The position numbers and the translations under genes are program-made. This document shows, piece by piece, positions 26,207 to 32,000 of a DNA stretch of 32,000 nucleotides. Source of the stretch: Erysipelotrichaceae bacterium OH741_COT-311 (GTDB taxonomy: Bacteria > Bacillota_I > Bacilli_A > Erysipelotrichales > Erysipelotrichaceae); assembly GCA_003858585.1 (NCBI GenBank), contig RQZE01000007.1:138084-170083 (forward strand), in the 5' to 3' direction. The notes under the pieces were generated by a model. The model did no database searches, was not told the DNA's origin, and was given only the letters and a program-made list of their open reading frames with translations. Within the stretch, counting starts at the first letter, position 1, and every line of letters begins with the position of its first letter.

Positions 26207-26231
26207 AAATGGATAACTTTCTTATCCATTT
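26207..26231 (-). terminator. Terminator of the NUDIX gene, overlapping its stop codon
   Basis: The minus-strand RNA reads AAAUGGAUAA-GAAAG-UUAUCCAUUU followed by UAUUUUUC. Confidence 0.6.
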
Positions 26232-26649
26232 ATAGTTTCTTAAACACGATATTACGATAATAGTCTACTTGTTGTAGCATATGCTCAATATTACATTCGC
26301 CAGCAAAACGAGTGCAATCACAAAAGTTTTCACTACGAGAGATCCAAACCAATGGATTTACCTCTTCTTTTAATGATATCTCCGTATATAACTTTCCAAC
26401 AAATACTTCCAATTCTATGTTTGATATAAAATACTGAAAATTCATCAAGTGTGTAAGAATAATTTCTTCCTTTTTGATACCTGTTTCTTCAAATAATTCT
26501 CTATACGCCGCCTCTTGCAGTGTTTCATGTTCTTCGACTTTTCCACCTACAAAATTATACATACCTTTATAAGGATCTTTACTACGTTTACACATTAATA
26601 CTTTTGTTTCATCCGGATTATAGACAATAATTAGGTTTAGTTTTTTTAT
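26230..26649 (-). CDS. NUDIX hydrolase; probable non-ATG (ATA) start 18 codons upstream of the ORF-track ATG
   Basis: Nudix box GGKVEEHETLQEAAYRELFEETGI. The frame stays open upstream of the ATG at 26595 and encodes (I/M)KKLNLIIVYNPDETKVL, the expected first beta-strands. AGAAGGA lies 7 nt upstream of the ATA at 26647-26649, and there is no in-frame ATG, GTG or TTG in the extension. Confidence 0.7.
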   Translation of the reverse strand: MKKLNLIIVYNPDETKVLMCKRSKDPYKGMYNFVGGKVEEHETLQEAAYRELFEETGIKKEEIILTHLMNFQYFISNIELEVFVGKLYTEISLKEEVNPLVWISRSENFCDCTRFAGECNIEHMLQQVDYYRNIVFKKL

Positions 26650-26926
26650 TTGTATATCCTTCTGTTATATTTCCAATAGTTTTCATCATAAAATTACTTT
26701 ATACATCTAATATATAGCAATAATTTAGATAGATTTTATTTAATTTTAAATAAATTTTAAAAATTTTAATTTTTTTCCTTCAATTAGGTGGTTTCATTAT
26801 ATAATAGTCGCAAAATTTTAATGCCATGTAAAGAAAAACTGCATGCTGTTAAAAAAGGAGGAAATTATGAAAAATCAAAATAATTCAAACCATCTTACAC
26901 AAAACCATTTCTTTATCGACGCTTAT

Positions 26927-27901
26927 CTAATCTTTATATACCTTAGCTATTTCCTCTGCAATTTTCTCAATCACTGACACACATACTGAATTTCCTGCCT
27001 GTTTATATAACCTTGAATCACTTTGATTATTCGGTAACTTATAATTTAATGGAAATCCTTGCGCATTAAAGCACTCGCGTGGTGTCATTTTTCTGATTCC
27101 ATACTTTGTCTTAATTAAGCAAACATTGTGACCACCTTCACCTTGATTCGCCGTTAAAGTCGGCACAACCCCTGACTGGTTCTTTCTTACATATTTTCTT
27201 CTCCATTGATAAATAGCAGGATTCTTAGAATCATCACTCTTCATTGATTCTTCCAACGCATCATATATTTCACCTTTATATTTACCAGACGTGTAATAAT
27301 ACTTTTCATCTACCTTCGTGTTAAAATCTATGATATCCTTCACCGTATTAGTTAGCGGTATGGAAAGTGGCCAATGGAATTTTTTATAATCCTCATCATC
27401 TCTAAAAGCAACGATATATATTCGTTCTCTATTCTGAGCAATATTACCATAATCCATTGCATTCAAGACTTGATATGTATATTTGTAACCCAAAATATCT
27501 AATTGTTCAGATATCACACGAAATGTATTTCCTTTGTCATGTCCTACTAGGTTTTTGACATTTTCGAAAAACGCCACTCTCGGTCTCTTATCTTTAAGTA
27601 TCCTAGTTAATTCAAAAAATAATTCTCCACGTCCCTTTTCATCATCAAAACCTTTTCTATATCCTGCAATTGAAAAAGCCTGACATGGAAATCCGGCCAA
27701 CATAACGTCAAAATCCGGTATTTCACCACTTTTTACCTCATGTATATCTCGTACATCCACCTTTATACCATAATTGAGCTCAAATGTTTTTGCAGGATAT
27801 TCATCAAATTCATTGGCATAAATAGTTTTAAAATACTTTGTCATTTCAAAACCGTAATCTATACCTCCAACTCCTGCAAAAAAAGAAGCACATTTTAACA
27901 T
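26927..27901 (-). CDS. DNA (cytosine-5)-methyltransferase
   Basis: All the key C5-MTase motifs are present: I FAGVGG, IV GFPCQAFS, VI FENVKNL, VIII QNRERIYIV, the TRD-region sequence PTLTANQGEGGHNV and X AGNSVCVSV. The ATG at 27899-27901 (MLKCASFFAGVGG) follows AAAGGAGAG. The track start at 27952 is a TTG in the promoter. Confidence 0.9.
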   Translation of the reverse strand: MLKCASFFAGVGGIDYGFEMTKYFKTIYANEFDEYPAKTFELNYGIKVDVRDIHEVKSGEIPDFDVMLAGFPCQAFSIAGYRKGFDDEKGRGELFFELTRILKDKRPRVAFFENVKNLVGHDKGNTFRVISEQLDILGYKYTYQVLNAMDYGNIAQNRERIYIVAFRDDEDYKKFHWPLSIPLTNTVKDIIDFNTKVDEKYYYTSGKYKGEIYDALEESMKSDDSKNPAIYQWRRKYVRKNQSGVVPTLTANQGEGGHNVCLIKTKYGIRKMTPRECFNAQGFPLNYKLPNNQSDSRLYKQAGNSVCVSVIEKIAEEIAKVYKD

Positions 27902-27935
27902 CTTAATCTCTCCTTTACTCGAAAATACTTTATAA

Positions 27936-27984
27936 ATTATATCAAAAATCAAGAAGCGTCACATTCTTATTTTAAAAAATAAGA
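27936..27984 (-). promoter_or_regulatory. Extended -10 promoter of the methyltransferase gene, preceded by a 20-bp AT-rich palindrome
   Basis: The minus strand carries TGaTATAAT at 27936-27944. Upstream lies TCTTATTTT-AA-AAAATAAGA at 27965-27984, in the 98-nt gap after the 218-aa gene. Confidence 0.45.
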
Positions 27985-27999
27985 TGGAATACGCTACCT

Positions 28000-28656
28000 C
28001 TACTTCGGAGAAATATATCCTTTCGGCGGATTATTTTCATCTATCCATATAAACTCTAGATGAATATTATCAGAGCCTTTATACTTTGTAAACTTAAGTC
28101 TATTTATATTTAATTCCTTTAGTCTTTCTGACGTAAGTGGTTCATATTTATCTAACTGAAATACCCCTCTTAAAATCCATTCTCCTAAATATATTTGCTT
28201 TTCTGTTGATTCAATCGCCTTTCCATTATCTTGCGTTATATATGCAGGCAATATATCTCCTGAAGGTTCAAATACTAGACTAAACCGACGTTTCTCTTTT
28301 GAGAGTGATAATTTAGATGTTCCCTCTTGCATCTTACCATAATTTTTCCCGAAGAAATTTGGATGTTTCCTGTGAAATCGTGCAGAATTTGGGGTTGGAA
28401 TATACATTTCATCCATAGGTCTATATAAAATTTTATATATTTCAGTCATTAACTTCTCATTATTTGTTTCTTGAACAAGTCCAACTAAGTATTCTCGTAG
28501 TTTTACTTTTTCAAGCTTCTCAAATAACGTTGAAGATCCTTCAATAAGATACTTAATCATACCCTTTTTTATTTTAAGCAAAATATTCGAATCAATCACC
28601 GCTTCATAATCTGTATAAAGCTTATCAATTCTTTGTTTTCTTTGGTTTTTCCTCAT
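28000..28656 (-). CDS. Hypothetical basic protein (218 aa) translationally coupled to the upstream frameshifted gene
   Basis: ATGA start/stop overlap at 28653-28656. It is lysine/arginine-rich. I could identify no PD-(D/E)xK, HNH, GIY-YIG or PLD motif by eye, and no family is recognised. Confidence 0.6.
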   Translation of the reverse strand: MRKNQRKQRIDKLYTDYEAVIDSNILLKIKKGMIKYLIEGSSTLFEKLEKVKLREYLVGLVQETNNEKLMTEIYKILYRPMDEMYIPTPNSARFHRKHPNFFGKNYGKMQEGTSKLSLSKEKRRFSLVFEPSGDILPAYITQDNGKAIESTEKQIYLGEWILRGVFQLDKYEPLTSERLKELNINRLKFTKYKGSDNIHLEFIWIDENNPPKGYISPK

Positions 28657-29580
28657 CTTTGAACCAGTTCCAAAAAACTGTTGAAACCAGAATATAATTC
28701 TGTTTCTCCTTTTTTATTCCATATTGTCCAGCAGTAAGACTCTTCTACAGTGTTTTCCTCATCAATTTCTGGAGTTAAAAGATTATCATCACTTTCATCT
28801 TTCGGATAAACTGTATCAGCAATTCTTTCAAAAATTGCAAAAGCATCAGTAGCGTACTTAACATTCCATTCATCACAAACTATATCCTTATTGTTAAAGT
28901 TCATATACAATTGACTATCTGCTGAAGTATATTTATACGCATGGTTTCCATCTATAAAGAAAAGTTGGTTGGATTATTTTTCCCAGTACAACCTAAAATT
29001 GATATATTATCAATATCAATCTTGTCATAAGTAGTTTCACCTACATAAATCTTAGAATCATCACCCTTGCATGATGGCATTAACACATGATAAACCAAAT
29101 GAACATGGCTATCATCAATTTCTACCTTAAATCCCTTTATTTTAGCTTTAGATGACTCTATTCTGGCATTTCGAATCTTTGCTATTCTTCGTGCCAAAAT
29201 CATATATAAATTCTTATTCTTAGAATTTATAGTTTCCTCATCATCTCCCGTTACATTGTTTTTAATCTTCTCTATAATCCCTGACCATTCATCATTTTTT
29301 GCCTTAAACTGCGCAATTTTTTGATCTCCTGAAGCAAATCCAAAACTTTTAATTCCAACTAAATACTTCTCACTATTAGATTGTAACGAAGCGTCATAAG
29401 AAGTATTGCCAATATCTTCAGCATATGCATTAAACGCCTTAAGAAATGCTGTCTCTTGAAATTTTGAATTAGTAATGCAAAGCCCTCTTCTGATTTTGAT
29501 TTCTGTGCAAACATACTTGTTAAGCTTACAAATGCAAGAATGAGTCTTTTATACTCATTTTTTCTCTTTTTCCAATTCAT
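28653..29580 (-). pseudogene. One ~309-aa gene split over three reading frames (ORF-track fragments 29359-29580, 28952-29203, 28653-28910); either frameshifted or recoded
   Basis: The frame of the 83-aa ORF is open and protein-like for 115 codons upstream of its ATG, with no start codon (…QETAFLKAFNAYAEDIGNTSYDASLQSNSEKYLVGIKSFGFASGDQKIAQF…). The frame of the 85-aa ORF is open for 21 codons upstream of its start (…IDGNHAYKYTSADSQLY…). Both junctions need a -1 shift, at 29458-29464 and within 28955-28973. Confidence 0.6.
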
Positions 29581-29598
29581 CCCACATAAAAATTTTCC

Positions 29599-32000
29599 CT
29601 ATATAGTCACCAAAACATAATTTTTGCCATCATACTTAATATAATCAGAATCACGCAATTCAATTGGTATAGTTTTTCTTGAGAGACTATGCAGTACTAA
29701 AAACGAAAGGAACTGACTTTCGGACATGACTTCATAGCCAAACGATTTCATCACAGTTGCCACTACTTGAGGATACGATATTAAACCACTTACCTTCTTT
29801 ACAACAATTCCCTTTTGATATCTTCTATCTTTCATTACTGGATGAATAACATCCAAGTCCAAATAATACTTTCTTATAAGACTTTCTATTAAGAACTCGT
29901 TCCACTCAATATCCAACTTTGGAAAATCATCAAATTCAATGTCCATCAAAGGTAAAATTCCATTTGCCAATTTTCCAATAATAACATCATGAATCTCATT
30001 AACAACACTATCAGGAACTAACATTTGGTCTTTCCTAACATACGTTTCTATAGAAATCCTTGCATAGTCATCTTCTATTTCTGGCAACGTTGCGCTCGCT
30101 GTAACTCTAGCCCATTTCACCTGTTCACACATATCATTATATTCATCATATGTAAAGCGTTCCGGATTGCCCAAAAGATAAAGAACTACATTTTTAGTTG
30201 ATAAAATATCAAACATCCCTTTTTTGCATATATGAGGTCTTCTAAAATCCATATCTTCTGAAAACATCTTTGAAATAATATAATAAAGATTCATTTCATT
30301 TTTAATTTTATTTCTTGACAAGAAGTCCGAATTAAGTATTTTTACTTTTTCAAAAAGTAAAGCGTCACTTGTATACCCTCCATTTTGTTGCAACAATTCA
30401 ACAACATAATTATACATTTCAAGAGTATCTTGTTTTGTAATATTTTGAATTCCTGTACAAGTATAATAGTTATAATCCCATTGCATTAATCTTTTATCAT
30501 TAGTAAATGGTATCATAAGCATAACATTACTAAATCCTCTGAACTCTTGTAGCAGTTCTATTTTACTAACTGGTCTTCCTACGCTAATAATAAAATCATA
30601 TATACGATCAGAAATACTCTCCGTTTGATTTGCAGAAACACCATTCTTAAGAAAATAATCTTTATAGTATTCATATTCCTTTGGATAATACATAGATAAA
30701 ATCCCATGCAAATAGTTATAATTATCAATTCCATAAAGAGCATTCAAAACTCCTTCATATTCAGCAAATACTTCACTATAATAGACTCGATTAGTTTGTT
30801 TTTTATCAATATAATCTTTGATTTCCTGAAGTTGAGACTCATCAACTGTAACATATTCCTGAGCAATATATATACCCCTACCTCTCAAAATCAATCCACT
30901 TCTTATCAATGCGGAACTTAGCGCCCTATCACTAGATGGAACTAACAAATCCTGAAATCTCTCTTCTATAATACTTCGAAGTTTTTTCAAATCCTCAGAC
31001 TGTTCTGAATCATTCTGTGAAAGCTTAATACCATCTGGAAACTCCTTTTTTACAATATACATACATACGTTTGCATAATTAGATTTACCTTTAAATACGA
31101 AACTTCCAAAGATATGATACTTATTCTTTTTTAGTAATCGGATAATCGCATTTATTTCAATGAAATCTAATTTATTATCTTCTAAAATAGAATCTAGTCT
31201 TTCTTTATTCTCGTATAAGTCTGCCCCATCACCAATGACATCTGTGATTTCTAAAACTAATTTCGCTTCAAGAGAATAGTCATTTTGCTTTTCAACAATT
31301 ATTTCTGCAAAATCTAAATATTCAAATTTTTCAAAGGATTTACATGCATATACTAATACCTGATCGTATTCATCGACATCATATACATCCAATATATCTT
31401 GTATTGATACATAGTTGTTAGAACCTTTTAATATGTAGAATAGTTCTCTAACAAATGGCATTATACTTCTAGCATATTTACTTTCAAGTTGTCTAACACG
31501 CTCTCTTGTTATCGGATCCTCATGTTCACGTGGATTATCCGCAATTTCCTGTAATGTTTCTCCCTTTGCCCTTCGCAAAAAGACATCAAAATATCTACTT
31601 TCACAATTTGAATTCAGTACATACTCAAGTAATGCTATAATATCTTTTTCTAATAATCCAGCTACAGCAGACAATTTATCAATATATCGTCTCCCCAACA
31701 TTACTTCAAATTTTCTTTTAGGAAGAAATCTTAACTTTCCGCAACATTGTATATTGTTTTTTTTCAACCTCGCAACAAGTTTGCTAGATAATCCTAATAC
31801 TTCCAAAGCTTCTATTCGCAGATAATCTAAATCAACAGACATATTCTCAAACATATATTTGGGCTCAAAATCTATCGTGCTACACTTTGTTTTTTTATAT
31901 ATAGGCATTCCTCCTGCACGTATTCTTTCCATTACTTCTTCATTCTCTTTTACAGTTTTGAACCCCACATTCCTTAAGTCTGACAAACTGTTTTCTGCAA
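29599..32000 (-). CDS. Large protein (more than 795 aa, 5' end off-window) with an RpoA-alphaCTD-like helix-hairpin-helix and a sigma-70 region-4-like HTH; function unknown
   Basis: The track start at 31986 is a TTG, and the frame remains open to base 32000 (…AENS-LSDLRN…). HhH-like segment: EALEVLGLSSKLVARLKKNNIQCCGKL (31729-31815). Sigma-r4-like segment: FLRRAKGETLQEIADNPREHEDPITRERVRQLESKYARSI (31459-31611). The remaining ~600 aa have no motif I recognise. Confidence 0.7.
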   Translation of the reverse strand, partial: AENSLSDLRNVGFKTVKENEEVMERIRAGGMPIYKKTKCSTIDFEPKYMFENMSVDLDYLRIEALEVLGLSSKLVARLKKNNIQCCGKLRFLPKRKFEVMLGRRYIDKLSAVAGLLEKDIIALLEYVLNSNCESRYFDVFLRRAKGETLQEIADNPREHEDPITRERVRQLESKYARSIMPFVRELFYILKGSNNYVSIQDILDVYDVDEYDQVLVYACKSFEKFEYLDFAEIIVEKQNDYSLEAKLVLEITDVIGDGADLYENKERLDSILEDNKLDFIEINAIIRLLKKNKYHIFGSFVFKGKSNYANVCMYIVKKEFPDGIKLSQNDSEQSEDLKKLRSIIEERFQDLLVPSSDRALSSALIRSGLILRGRGIYIAQEYVTVDESQLQEIKDYIDKKQTNRVYYSEVFAEYEGVLNALYGIDNYNYLHGILSMYYPKEYEYYKDYFLKNGVSANQTESISDRIYDFIISVGRPVSKIELLQEFRGFSNVMLMIPFTNDKRLMQWDYNYYTCTGIQNITKQDTLEMYNYVVELLQQNGGYTSDALLFEKVKILNSDFLSRNKIKNEMNLYYIISKMFSEDMDFRRPHICKKGMFDILSTKNVVLYLLGNPERFTYDEYNDMCEQVKWARVTASATLPEIEDDYARISIETYVRKDQMLVPDSVVNEIHDVIIGKLANGILPLMDIEFDDFPKLDIEWNEFLIESLIRKYYLDLDVIHPVMKDRRYQKGIVVKKVSGLISYPQVVATVMKSFGYEVMSESQFLSFLVLHSLSRKTIPIELRDSDYIKYDGKNYVLVTI

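Follow-up and report, generated by a model that had tools for sequence, protein, structure and literature searches.

Genes and features of the locus

The window analysed here, a stretch of 32,000 nucleotides from Erysipelotrichaceae bacterium OH741_COT-311, ends in a region (26650-32000) that carries three genes, tightly packed and all encoded on the minus strand. A sequence-only reading had described the same packing and orientation but counted four genes, as it took two open reading frames of 309 and 218 aa, which belong to one restriction endonuclease gene, for separate genes. The features are as follows:

26596..26926, no strand: non-coding, AT-rich spacer (21.8% GC) at the downstream edge of the island
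26927..27901, minus: intact C5 cytosine DNA methyltransferase of 324 aa (PF00145, 3e-85; TIGR00675, 3.4e-97)
27902..27999, minus: 98-nt spacer between endonuclease and methyltransferase, predicted methyltransferase promoter (extended -10 and degenerate palindrome)
28000..29587, minus: type II restriction endonuclease pseudogene, merging the 309-aa and 218-aa frames
28672..28677, minus: endonuclease frameshift 4, T6 where T7 is required (between GFNSF and FGTGSKMRKNQ), yielding the apparent 218-aa gene
28960..28963, minus: endonuclease frameshift 3, T4 where T5 is required (between PTNF and FFIDG)
29474..29478, minus: endonuclease frameshift 2, loss of 1 nt outside a long run, between KSKSEEGFA and ITNSKFQETAF
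29558..29563, minus: endonuclease frameshift 1, A6 where A5 is required (MWDELEKEKK and a stop, which should be MWDELEKEKNEYKRL)
29599..32000, minus: BIG, the 3' 799 codons of a predicted multidomain DNA-binding protein of about 918 aa, the frame leaving the window
29602..31425, minus: C-terminal part of BIG (~600 residues), with about nine tandem winged-helix-like units (repeated H-H-H-E-E)
31472..31581, minus: sigma-70 region-4-like helix-turn-helix of BIG (FLRRAKGETLQEIADNP...ITRERVRQLESKY; PF04545 in distant homologues, 0.0055)
31721..31821, minus: second alphaCTD-like helix-hairpin-helix of BIG, LRIEALEVLGLSSKLVARLKKNNIQCCGKL (model helices 181-235)

The region is AT-richer than its surroundings, as had been stated, but only modestly so (30.9% GC against 33.3% for the remaining window, where the lowest value for any equally long stretch is 32.0%), and the GC3 of its genes gave no distinct signal in the comparison within the window. 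We consider it probable that this is the downstream end of an accessory island of about 9.5 kb made of two joined modules. At the site of the spacer that forms its edge, homologous loci have a GIY-YIG-like gene of about 309 aa (PADLOC PDC-S14; match of 4e-44 in locus L002), of which tblastn found no trace in the window. The further genes expected past base 32000 were found on a Logan contig of the same strain (L020), which contains s71, M33A, M33B, M33C and BIG codons 1-99 and then ends; its M33A is 100% identical to NCBI EII25_03005 from this organism.

The C5 methyltransferase is complete, as had been proposed, and the ATG at 27901 is its true start codon. The FAGVGG, FPCQ, ENV, QNRER and GNSV motifs can be read in its translation, PADLOC MTase_II matches it at 3.6e-115, and the match to M.HhaI (residues 4-319, 1.2e-58) shows a full-length likeness that includes the target-recognition region; the enzyme of L002 is 85% identical. 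The 98-nt gap ahead of the gene, to which a promoter of its own had been ascribed, does hold an extended -10 (TGATATAAT, 27936-27944), invariant across the six loci compared, from which the methyltransferase is likely to be expressed. A 12-bp palindrome (GCGGCGCGCCGC) is conserved in five of six homologous loci, with exactly one copy per locus and always just upstream of the methyltransferase; the copy here is degenerate (GTGACGCTTCTT, 27951-27962).

According to the sequence-only reading, the partner proteins had no nuclease motif and the layout did not resemble a type II restriction-modification (R-M) system. The first statement fails for two of these three proteins and the second does not hold either: the concatenated 309-aa and 218-aa query retrieved 665 homologues, the best of about 539 aa with 60-71% identity over 99%, and PADLOC REase_II models match both halves (PDLC03446, 1.5e-07; PDLC03479, 2.9e-08). 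Because these HMM matches and full-length homologues identify one predicted type II restriction endonuclease of about 530 aa, beside its C5 methyltransferase, the two supposedly unrecognisable partners amount to an ordinary pseudogenised R-M system, an outcome that the reading itself had named as one that would refute it. One intact homologue (P0179) carries the NCBI name 'NgoFVII family restriction endonuclease', and PF20731 matches at 0.0015, below the family cut-off. The family joins a B3-like NgoFVII_C-type C-terminal domain to a non-PLD N-terminal domain; L009, L011 and L012 hold shorter relatives, whose matches span the whole of PDLC03479 (1e-78 to 1e-84) and which also match PF20731 at about 1e-10. 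The pair resembles NgoFVII and other type II systems with a B3-like domain, in which an M.HhaI-like C5 methyltransferase adjoins an endonuclease with this C-terminus. By contrast, the N-terminal half of the endonuclease has no match to the PLD nuclease domain PF09565, the hallmark of true NgoFVII (this domain does match the endonuclease of L059, 2.4e-35), the protein has an insert of about 150 aa compared with relatives of 390-408 aa, and its gene is a pseudogene.

BIG and the cassette that it closes

The large frame of more than 795 aa, open to base 32000, was confirmed, and the window covers the 3' 87% of BIG, a single HSP aligning with residues 123-917 of homologues of about 917 aa. The 92 homologues are mostly of 911-925 aa and carry PF03118 and sometimes PF04545; the NCBI call of 795 aa, from a TTG at 31986, is probably a contig-end artefact. 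Neither L020 nor the window covers about 19 codons of BIG, which fall between the two, and BIG may be interrupted there in this strain.

The helix-hairpin-helix and sigma-r4-like elements noticed earlier were also recovered, homologues matching PF03118 at 2.4e-10 and PF04545 weakly. The architecture comprises a Zn-ribbon, two alphaCTD-like helix-hairpin-helix domains, a sigma-r4-like helix-turn-helix and about nine tandem winged helices, the N-terminal Zn-ribbon and the first helix-hairpin-helix lying beyond the window end. PF03118 and rpoA C-terminal models match homologue residues ~70-150, and the nearly invariant residues R262, G265, T267, L268, T283, R284, E285, R286, R288 and Q289 fall within the helix-turn-helix. 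In the structural model (pLDDT 82.6 overall) the C-terminal region is mostly above 85, and Foldseek matches only tandem winged-helix arrays (UFL1, the SelB C-terminus, TFIIIC tauB, Dcc1); these ~600 residues have no Pfam, NCBIfam or PADLOC family, and no enzymatic domain was detected in BIG.

BIG stands last in a widespread cassette with the conserved order s71, M33A, M33B, M33C (DUF6339), BIG. In 14 of the 18 loci retrieved through BIG homologues, all five genes run in the same direction and are either 2 nt apart or overlap by 4 nt; L017 supplies an additional M33C-BIG fragment and P0372 is a natural s71::BIG fusion. M33A, M33B and M33C match PDC-M33 models (3.6e-222, 2.7e-97 and 1.8e-82), PDC systems being phage-defence candidates from guilt-by-embedding (bioRxiv 10.1101/2024.01.29.577857). 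The motifs ExxxNxxD, DxxxxGxxG and GGSxGIGK are invariant in the M33A alignment; since the M33A model best matches MORC3 in Foldseek (6.1e-08), then TRAP1/Hsp90, MORC4, GyrB and ParE, we identify M33A as a GHKL (MORC/Hsp90/GyrB-like) ATPase. The Pfam GHKL models HATPase_c_3 and HEF_HK gave no M33A match, apart from DUF6339 no family, PDB or PHROG entry matched M33B or M33C, no nuclease was identified within the cassette, and our literature search found no paper naming PDC-M33 or DUF6339. That the partners lack an ATPase motif is true of the window, which encodes none, but the cassette has its ATPase, M33A, outside it.

Linkage to C5 methyltransferases and possible function

Linkage was sampled in 80 metagenome loci drawn through M33C, the methyltransferase being evaluable in 49 and BIG in 68. 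A C5 methyltransferase goes with the cassette in 48 of the 49, and BIG follows M33C in 43 of the 68. The restriction enzyme is often missing from these loci. Across the loci, R-M partners vary (NgoFVII-type, FokI-type, Eco47II, MTase::NgoFVII fusion, Vsr, or none). The order BIG, endonuclease, methyltransferase, with gaps of ~20 nt and ~98 nt, recurs on many independent contigs. In line with the sequence-only reading, BIG does not stand next to the methyltransferase by chance, but closes a conserved cassette that is nearly always linked to a C5 methyltransferase. As it is absent from 25 of the 68 loci, and relatives in L008 and L013 stand without M33A-C, its role could be accessory or regulatory.

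We favour, and judge reasonably probable, the explanation that a type II R-M system in decay is fused here to a MORC-like defence module with a link to methylation. Gene identities, the pseudogene state, folds and gene linkage are established by the analysis, whereas the defence function, its dependence on methylation and the part played by BIG are inferred. The first module is the R-M pair, with its intact M.HhaI-like C5 methyltransferase and dead endonuclease with a B3-like NgoFVII_C domain, and the second the five-gene operon s71, M33A, M33B, M33C and BIG, of which BIG alone lies inside the window. The methyltransferase would mark host DNA with 5-methylcytosine; BIG would bind DNA as a long scaffold or sensor and bring the dimeric, clamp-like GHKL ATPase, together with M33B and M33C, to DNA without the mark; and unmarked DNA would be restricted by a co-located nuclease where present, or by M33B/M33C activity. 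The observations of the sequence-only reading are confirmed in part and its interpretation partly supported: for BIG and the cassette, a role in defence or epigenetic control within an accessory island is plausible, and the 309-aa and 218-aa partners are a pseudogenised R-M system.

Several known systems share parts of this arrangement. The three genes upstream of BIG exist in this strain and match PDC-M33A, B and C (1e-82 to 1e-222; Payne et al., bioRxiv 10.1101/2024.01.29.577857), but neither BIG nor s71 has a PADLOC model, and the PADLOC model names do not reflect the near-obligate C5 methyltransferase link seen here. MORC/paraMORC families (Iyer, Abhiman & Aravind 2008, PMC2292703) and the HEF_HK/Response_reg_2 pairs found by C5 methyltransferases (PMC8011034) likewise feature a GHKL ATPase that carries a transducer-like second domain and, in mobile islands, is linked to cytosine methyltransferases, Vsr and varied endonucleases, and GHKL paraMORC families are predicted to act in R-M operons with cytosine methyltransferases, Vsr and assorted nucleases (PMC2292703; PMC8011034). 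The present cassette differs in having no superfamily II helicase, in the lack of a Pfam HATPase_c_3 or HEF_HK match for M33A, and in M33B, DUF6339, s71 and BIG, which are not among the described partners. GHKL ATPases can drive defence, since GHKL-Shedu (VcSduA / paraMORC3) is an experimentally validated anti-phage protein that requires its GHKL ATPase domain (PMC12137116); VcSduA, however, acts as one protein to which a DUF4263 PD-(D/E)xK nuclease is fused, whereas M33A has no DUF4263 domain and belongs to a multi-gene system linked to a methyltransferase. BREX and DISARM offer an analogy of working only, as a methyltransferase with a multi-protein, ATPase-containing cassette, here with many loci lacking a recognisable restriction nuclease: a PADLOC search found no homologue of PglZ, BrxC, PglX, DrmA, DrmB or DrmC, the sole similarity being a short helix-hairpin-helix stretch in common with PglW (1.6e-04), and the methyltransferase is a small C5 enzyme rather than the N6 PglX type.

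A possible but rather unlikely alternative is that s71-M33ABC-BIG serves epigenetic or regulatory purposes, controlling or exploiting C5 methylation, and is not a defence effector. BIG would then be a DNA-binding regulator that mimics RNA polymerase, and the GHKL ATPase would limit 5mC damage as a factor for MutL/Vsr-like repair or for chromatin compaction. The alphaCTD-like and sigma-r4-like domains of BIG suit this idea, as do the Vsr genes adjoining the cassette in L023 and L072, the analogy with MutL, the GHKL ATPase of methyl-directed repair (PMC2292703), the many loci with methyltransferase and cassette but no nuclease, and the methylatable palindrome inside the methyltransferase promoter. 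Against it stand the patchy distribution of the cassette in accessory islands near defence genes (GmrSD, MmeI-type, PDC-S14, HNH) and its matches to models whose source genes lie inside BREX, DISARM or type I R-M systems; the repair reading has no direct support.

It is less likely still that the locus amounts to an ordinary type II R-M system in decay, with BIG as a functionally unrelated neighbour, such as a mobile-element regulator. The endonuclease and methyltransferase are indeed a standard type II pair, and BIG has transcription-factor-like domains without an enzyme domain and relatives in other contexts (L008, L013), but its order and spacing to the R-M genes recur across contigs, it is translationally coupled to M33C, the link between cassette and C5 methyltransferase persists where endonuclease type or gene order differs, and no BIG relatives were found in plasmid, phage and BFVD collections.

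Decay of the restriction endonuclease

The endonuclease is dead in this strain, broken by four 1-nt indels. Two frame changes had been proposed, whereas four corrections are required; the gene starts at an ATG at 29587, 11 nt past the BIG stop codon and not 19 nt as had been given, and the ATGA overlap described earlier is a by-product of frameshift 4, where a T is missing. Over 14,973 nt, frameshifts included, the sequence is 100% identical to that of an independent Logan assembly from this strain. BIG has seven A/T runs of at least six, including 8 and 7, in frame, and altogether ten A/T runs of 6-8 nt in BIG and the methyltransferase stay in frame, whereas two of the four endonuclease indels hit one T4 run and one site outside a run. 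Some sequencing error is possible, since a homopolymer frameshift (+1 in an A7 run) also affects the adjacent NUDIX gene and both assemblies may come from the same reads.

That the endonuclease is intact in the living cell, in a fully active R-M system with its cassette, and that the frameshifts are homopolymer sequencing or assembly errors, as three of the four indels within A/T runs might suggest, is very improbable, because longer runs (A8, A7, T7) in BIG and the methyltransferase are unaffected, there are four indels in 1.6 kb of endonuclease and none detected in 3.4 kb of BIG and methyltransferase, two different assemblers agree at every base over 15 kb, and the GC-rich palindrome of the methyltransferase promoter has also decayed, by substitutions, which homopolymer error cannot make. 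For the favoured reading of an R-M system fused to a defence module, loss of the endonuclease need not have inactivated the rest, as many loci consist of the cassette and a C5 methyltransferase without a restriction endonuclease.

The restriction endonuclease and methyltransferase genes

All long open reading frames between 26650 and 32000 of the window lie on the minus strand, so that the co-directional arrangement described in the sequence-only reading is borne out by the ORF map. The region is also AT-richer, as had been claimed, but only slightly, since its GC content is 30.9% against 33.3% in the remainder of the window (where the minimum for any equally long stretch is 32.0%) and its GC at third codon positions is not distinct from that of the remainder. 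The features needed here are the following.

Features of the region and its flank (positions of the whole stretch)
26230-26689, minus strand: NUDIX gene flanking the island, with an extra A in the A7 run 26641-26647 (+1 frameshift)
26927-27952, minus strand: ORF of a C5 cytosine methyltransferase, start at the ATG at 27901 (from homologues and ribosome-binding site), 324 aa
28672-28677, minus strand: endonuclease frameshift 4, T missing in a T6 run
28960-28963, minus strand: endonuclease frameshift 3, T missing in a T4 run
near 29474-29478, minus strand: endonuclease frameshift 2, loss of 1 nt outside long runs
29558-29563, minus strand: endonuclease frameshift 1, extra A in an A-run

Between the methyltransferase and BIG, a DNA-binding protein of about 918 aa whose gene has its 3' part at the end of the window, two separate genes of ~309 and 218 aa had been proposed. 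When their frames were joined and searched against 5.8 billion proteins, 665 relatives were recovered, the best of them ~539 aa long, with 60-71% identity and covering 99% of the joined query, and the two proposed genes are thus one restriction endonuclease (REase) gene. Alignment to intact homologues, together with three-frame translation, located four single-nucleotide indels in it, where two frame changes had been counted in the ~309-aa gene, and its true start is an ATG at 29587, 11 nt past the BIG stop instead of 19 nt. The supposed ATGA junction and the apparent 218-aa gene both result from the T missing at 28672-28677.

The homologue P0179 of Catonella massiliensis is named "NgoFVII family restriction endonuclease" in NCBI. 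PADLOC REase_II models match both halves of the window copy (PDLC03446, 1.5e-07; PDLC03479, 2.9e-08) and the intact homologue of locus L002 (PDLC03479, 1.7e-16), so that two of the partner proteins thought to have no nuclease motif belong to a nuclease. The NgoFVII B3-like domain PF20731 is weak in the C-terminal half of the window copy (E 0.0015, 19 bits, under the 23.8-bit cut-off); it is precomputed for several intact homologues, and the shorter relatives encoded in L009, L011 and L012 are matched at ~1e-10. The window REase differs from the NgoFVII family in its N-terminal part, as neither the repaired window protein nor the intact L002 protein matched the PLD nuclease domain found in NgoFVII proper (PF09565/PLDc), whereas the REases of L005 and L059 are recognised by the same PF09565 model.

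The neighbouring methyltransferase (MTase) is complete, as had been noticed from the sequence: it matches PF00145 (3e-85, profile positions 2-323 of 324), TIGR00675 (3.4e-97) and PADLOC MTase_II (3.6e-115), its translation contains motifs I, IV, VI, VIII and X with all catalytic motifs complete, and it aligns over its full length, target-recognition region included, with M.HhaI (1.2e-58). MTase and adjacent REase homologue are shown by these homologies to form an ordinary type II restriction-modification (R-M) system, with a nuclease predicted to be dead. A C-protein-controlled R-M system was rejected, the HTH controller gene being absent from the window. Of the "methyltransferase-associated module" first described, the minus-strand genes and the intact MTase stand, while two "orphan" proteins have become one dead restriction enzyme, which removes a false lead.

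We read the REase as a real pseudogene, its nuclease presumably dead. That its frameshifts are sequencing errors would agree with the state of the NUDIX neighbour, which also appears to be frameshifted by an extra A in an A7 run, and both available assemblies may derive from the same reads; we nevertheless consider this unlikely, because contig L022 of an independent Logan assembly of this strain (SRR9701139) matches the window without a difference across 14,973 nt, broken REase ORFs included, and ten A/T runs of 6-8 nt stay in frame in the BIG and MTase genes. In the NUDIX gene MMKTIGNITEGYTNKK joins LNLIIVYNPDETKVLMCKR... of the next frame, the repaired protein aligns across the junction with MTH1-type NUDIX enzymes (E 8.7e-08), and the NCBI and Logan annotations contain its 121-aa 3' part only. 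Phase variation of the REase was rejected because a single slippage event cannot reverse four independent indels.

The large DNA-binding protein and its cassette

The BIG ORF of the window is 100% identical to NCBI RRC92218.1 (EII25_05355). The 92 homologues listed are mostly of 911-925 aa and carry PF03118 (RNA polymerase alpha C-terminal domain), more distant ones carrying PF04545 (sigma-70 region 4), and the family consensus opens with a CxxC...CxxC zinc ribbon. The AlphaFold model of P0002, a homologue 73% identical to BIG, has a mean pLDDT of 82.6 and contains two HhH units and an HTH, followed by roughly nine helix-helix-helix-strand-strand repeats; Foldseek retrieved only tandem winged-helix proteins (UFL1, the SelB C-terminus, TFIIIC tauB, cullins, Dcc1), and neither sequence profiles nor Foldseek on this model found an enzyme domain. 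Searching 1.84 billion representatives with a profile gave 1117 clusters at 50% identity (E<=1e-30); no relatives were found in plasmid, phage and BFVD collections, and a literature search found no published description of the family.

Some relatives are longer by 300-870 residues, placed N-terminally or, in P0375, at both ends: P0363 (1730 aa), P0375 (1765 aa), P0376 (1341 aa) and P0341 (1279 aa). These extra regions, which in P0363, P0375 and P0376 matched no PDB sequence and none of our cassette HMMs, may hold the missing effector domain.

In the contexts of BIG homologues, BIG is the last of five co-directional, tightly coupled genes, following s71 (71 aa) and genes of 622, 288 and 245 aa, the last with DUF6339; after this cassette commonly come the same REase, a gap of ~98 nt, the same MTase and a gene for a GIY-YIG-like protein. 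Using PADLOC on the L002 copies, we could assign the three middle genes to PDC-M33A (3.6e-222), PDC-M33B (2.7e-97) and PDC-M33C (1.8e-82), and the GIY-YIG-like gene matches another candidate, PDC-S14. The PDC systems are 145 untested phage-defence candidates taken from genes embedded in BREX, DISARM and type I R-M systems (bioRxiv 10.1101/2024.01.29.577857). BIG is not among the modelled components of PDC-M33, and PADLOC has models for neither BIG nor s71: the window protein matched no PDC-M33 model, its sole match being PglW (1.6e-04) over the HhH stretch. Current defence finders would report "MTase" only and miss both genes. None of the eight cassette proteins matched PglZ, BrxC, PglX, DrmA or DrmB in PADLOC; BREX and DISARM are rejected for want of these signature proteins, in agreement with the first impression of the layout. 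The profiles of M33A, M33B, M33C and the REase gave only chance-level matches to PDB sequences, and NCBIfam and PHROGs gave nothing useful on the cassette proteins.

The PDC-S14-like gene (~309 aa, GIY-YIG-like motif; PDC-S14 4e-44, phrog_12629 1.4e-34) comes after the MTase at several loci (L002 9956-10885, L001 13470-14393, L011 586-1512, L012 13928-14968) and is absent from the window, which has a 330-nt spacer of 21.8% GC in its place. In P0372, an 889-aa protein retrieved in the search of representatives, s71 is naturally fused to BIG as residues 1-71 (E 1.8e-24 against the s71 HMM), a fusion which suggests that the two proteins act together. In L005 and L019 a second s71 copy adjoins an HTH controller and an MTase::REase fusion. 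Proteins related to BIG at 31-37% identity are also found where M33A-C are missing, beside unrelated genes: at L008 8906-11482 a Cro/C1 HTH gene, and at L013 8621-11569 a gene whose product has WYL and FokI_D3 domains, so this winged-helix-array protein is used elsewhere too. In L075 (7384-14485) and L080 (7267-13764) the whole cassette (M33A, M33B, M33C and BIG) is broken into many short ORFs; module decay is thus not unique to the strain of the window.

What lies past base 32000 could be reconstructed indirectly, from the strain's own Logan contigs. NCBI places this organism's M33A (EII25_03005) on another contig, 138,882 bp long; L020, from the same Logan run, encodes an M33A 100% identical to it, in the order guaA, a 148-aa gene, ORF6N, s71, M33A, M33B, M33C and codons 1-99 of BIG, where the contig ends. 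More genes had been expected beyond the window, and they are found here, M33A, M33B and M33C being adjacent and co-directional as in PDC-M33. The BIG sequence of the window resumes ~19 codons (~57 nt) past the end of L020. Base 32000 is probably at or near a contig end, in which case the TTG start annotated in NCBI for the "795-aa" protein is an artefact. Both assemblies break in the 5' part of BIG, L020 (7206-7504) at codon 99 and the window at about codon 120, and L022 starts at window base 31899, near an A7 run at 31890-31896. A search for a repeat behind the break found no shared 14-mer; heterogeneity, low coverage or an insertion could account for it.

Linkage to cytosine methylation and a possible role

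As an independent sample, 80 metagenome loci were collected through M33C, without reference to BIG, and scored with our own HMMs. BIG follows M33C in 43 of the 68 loci with enough downstream sequence, and 48 of the 49 loci evaluable for a C5 MTase have one, so that the candidate M33 system is almost never found without such an enzyme. In one clade, of 24 loci, s71-M33ABC is accompanied by a convergent C5 MTase of ~530 aa, with neither BIG nor REase (in one of these, L083, the next gene is Mob_Pre). Elsewhere the partners vary by locus: an NgoFVII-type REase, a FokI-type REase between s71 and M33A, Eco47II, an MTase::NgoFVII fusion with an HTH controller, HNH, or only Vsr. What stays constant beside the cassette is the cytosine methyltransferase and not a particular nuclease.

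M33A is by its motifs and predicted structure a GHKL ATPase, with a Bergerat fold and an S5/transducer-like domain. Motifs E36xxxN40xxD43, D112...G117..G120 and G146GSxGIGK153 do not vary across 28 aligned sequences, and the model of the strain's own M33A, of pLDDT only 71, has MORC3 as its best Foldseek match (6.1e-08), followed by TRAP1/Hsp90, MORC4, ParE and GyrB; the alignments to MORC3, MORC4, Hsp90 and GyrB span 440-490 columns over the GHKL and S5 modules (E 6e-08 to 2e-05). No Pfam GHKL family matched M33A.

To our knowledge, no bacterial MORC-like ATPase has been tested apart from GHKL-Shedu (VcSduA). The latter was grouped by a 2025 paper (PMC12137116) with the paraMORC3 proteins of a 2008 proposal, which described R-M operons that combine GHKL ATPases with cytosine methylases, Vsr and nucleases of various kinds (Iyer et al. 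2008, PMC2292703) and saw in bacterial MORC-like ATPases the ancestors of eukaryotic MORC chromatin silencers; a later report (PMC8011034) also found GHKL-like genes adjoining C5 MTases. M33A shares with these ATPases the GHKL domain with its ATP-binding motifs and the methylase, Vsr and endonuclease neighbourhood, but lacks their association with superfamily II helicases, no helicase having been found within the cassette in ~100 loci. The HEF_HK/Response_reg_2 system of PMC8011034 was rejected as the same family, as there were no Pfam matches.

BIG is thus shown to close a MORC-like ATPase cassette that evolution has tied firmly to C5 methylation, and it adds a large protein family to this candidate defence system. 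The association of BIG, PDC-M33 and C5 MTase is a variant of a predicted kind of system. Of the defence or epigenetic module of orphan proteins first proposed, the R-M part has proved ordinary, and what survives is BIG, at the end of a cassette linked to C5 MTases. We infer that the cassette is a methylation-linked defence module, in which BIG, as a long array of DNA-binding domains, would position the GHKL clamp and M33B/M33C on DNA; its role may instead be in regulation or repair. That BIG is a bystander is argued against by its conserved linkage. The REase is absent from many loci, and its loss here may therefore leave the module working. More tentatively, and with some doubt on our part, s71-M33A-M33B-M33C(-BIG) and a small C5 MTase might form a self-contained, methylation-gated immune system independent of any REase, in which the GHKL clamp would act on unmethylated foreign DNA to silence or destroy it, loaded in one large clade by a winged-helix-array protein of ~900 aa whose DNA-contact domains are RNA-polymerase-like. 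Such REase-independent immunity, if true, would give bacteria an equivalent of the link between MORC proteins and DNA methylation in eukaryotes, with the strain of the window, in which the REase is dead and the MTase and cassette are intact, as a natural REase-free example. In gut and oral Firmicutes the cassette offers a compact and tractable test case for a GHKL clamp that reads or enforces DNA methylation in bacteria, and natural variants exist with or without BIG and with or without a nuclease.

A palindrome in the methyltransferase promoter

Just upstream of the M.HhaI-like MTase, each homologous locus has exactly one copy of the 12-bp GC palindrome GCGGCGCGCCGC (L001 12420-12431, L011 9378-9389, L037 8276-8287, L042 12537-12548, L044 4419-4430 and L049 11995-12006). 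It overlaps a -35-like hexamer, TTGCGG, which is followed 17 nt later by an invariant extended -10. An AscI site, two GCSGC sites and a pair of overlapping GCGC sites lie within the palindrome, which may be a methylation-sensitive operator. The GCGC and GCSGC sites, with the full-length likeness to M.HhaI, only hint at the specificity of the MTase. In the window the palindrome (27951-27962) is degenerate and now reads GTGACGCTTCTT, four of the seven changes being C>T or G>A.
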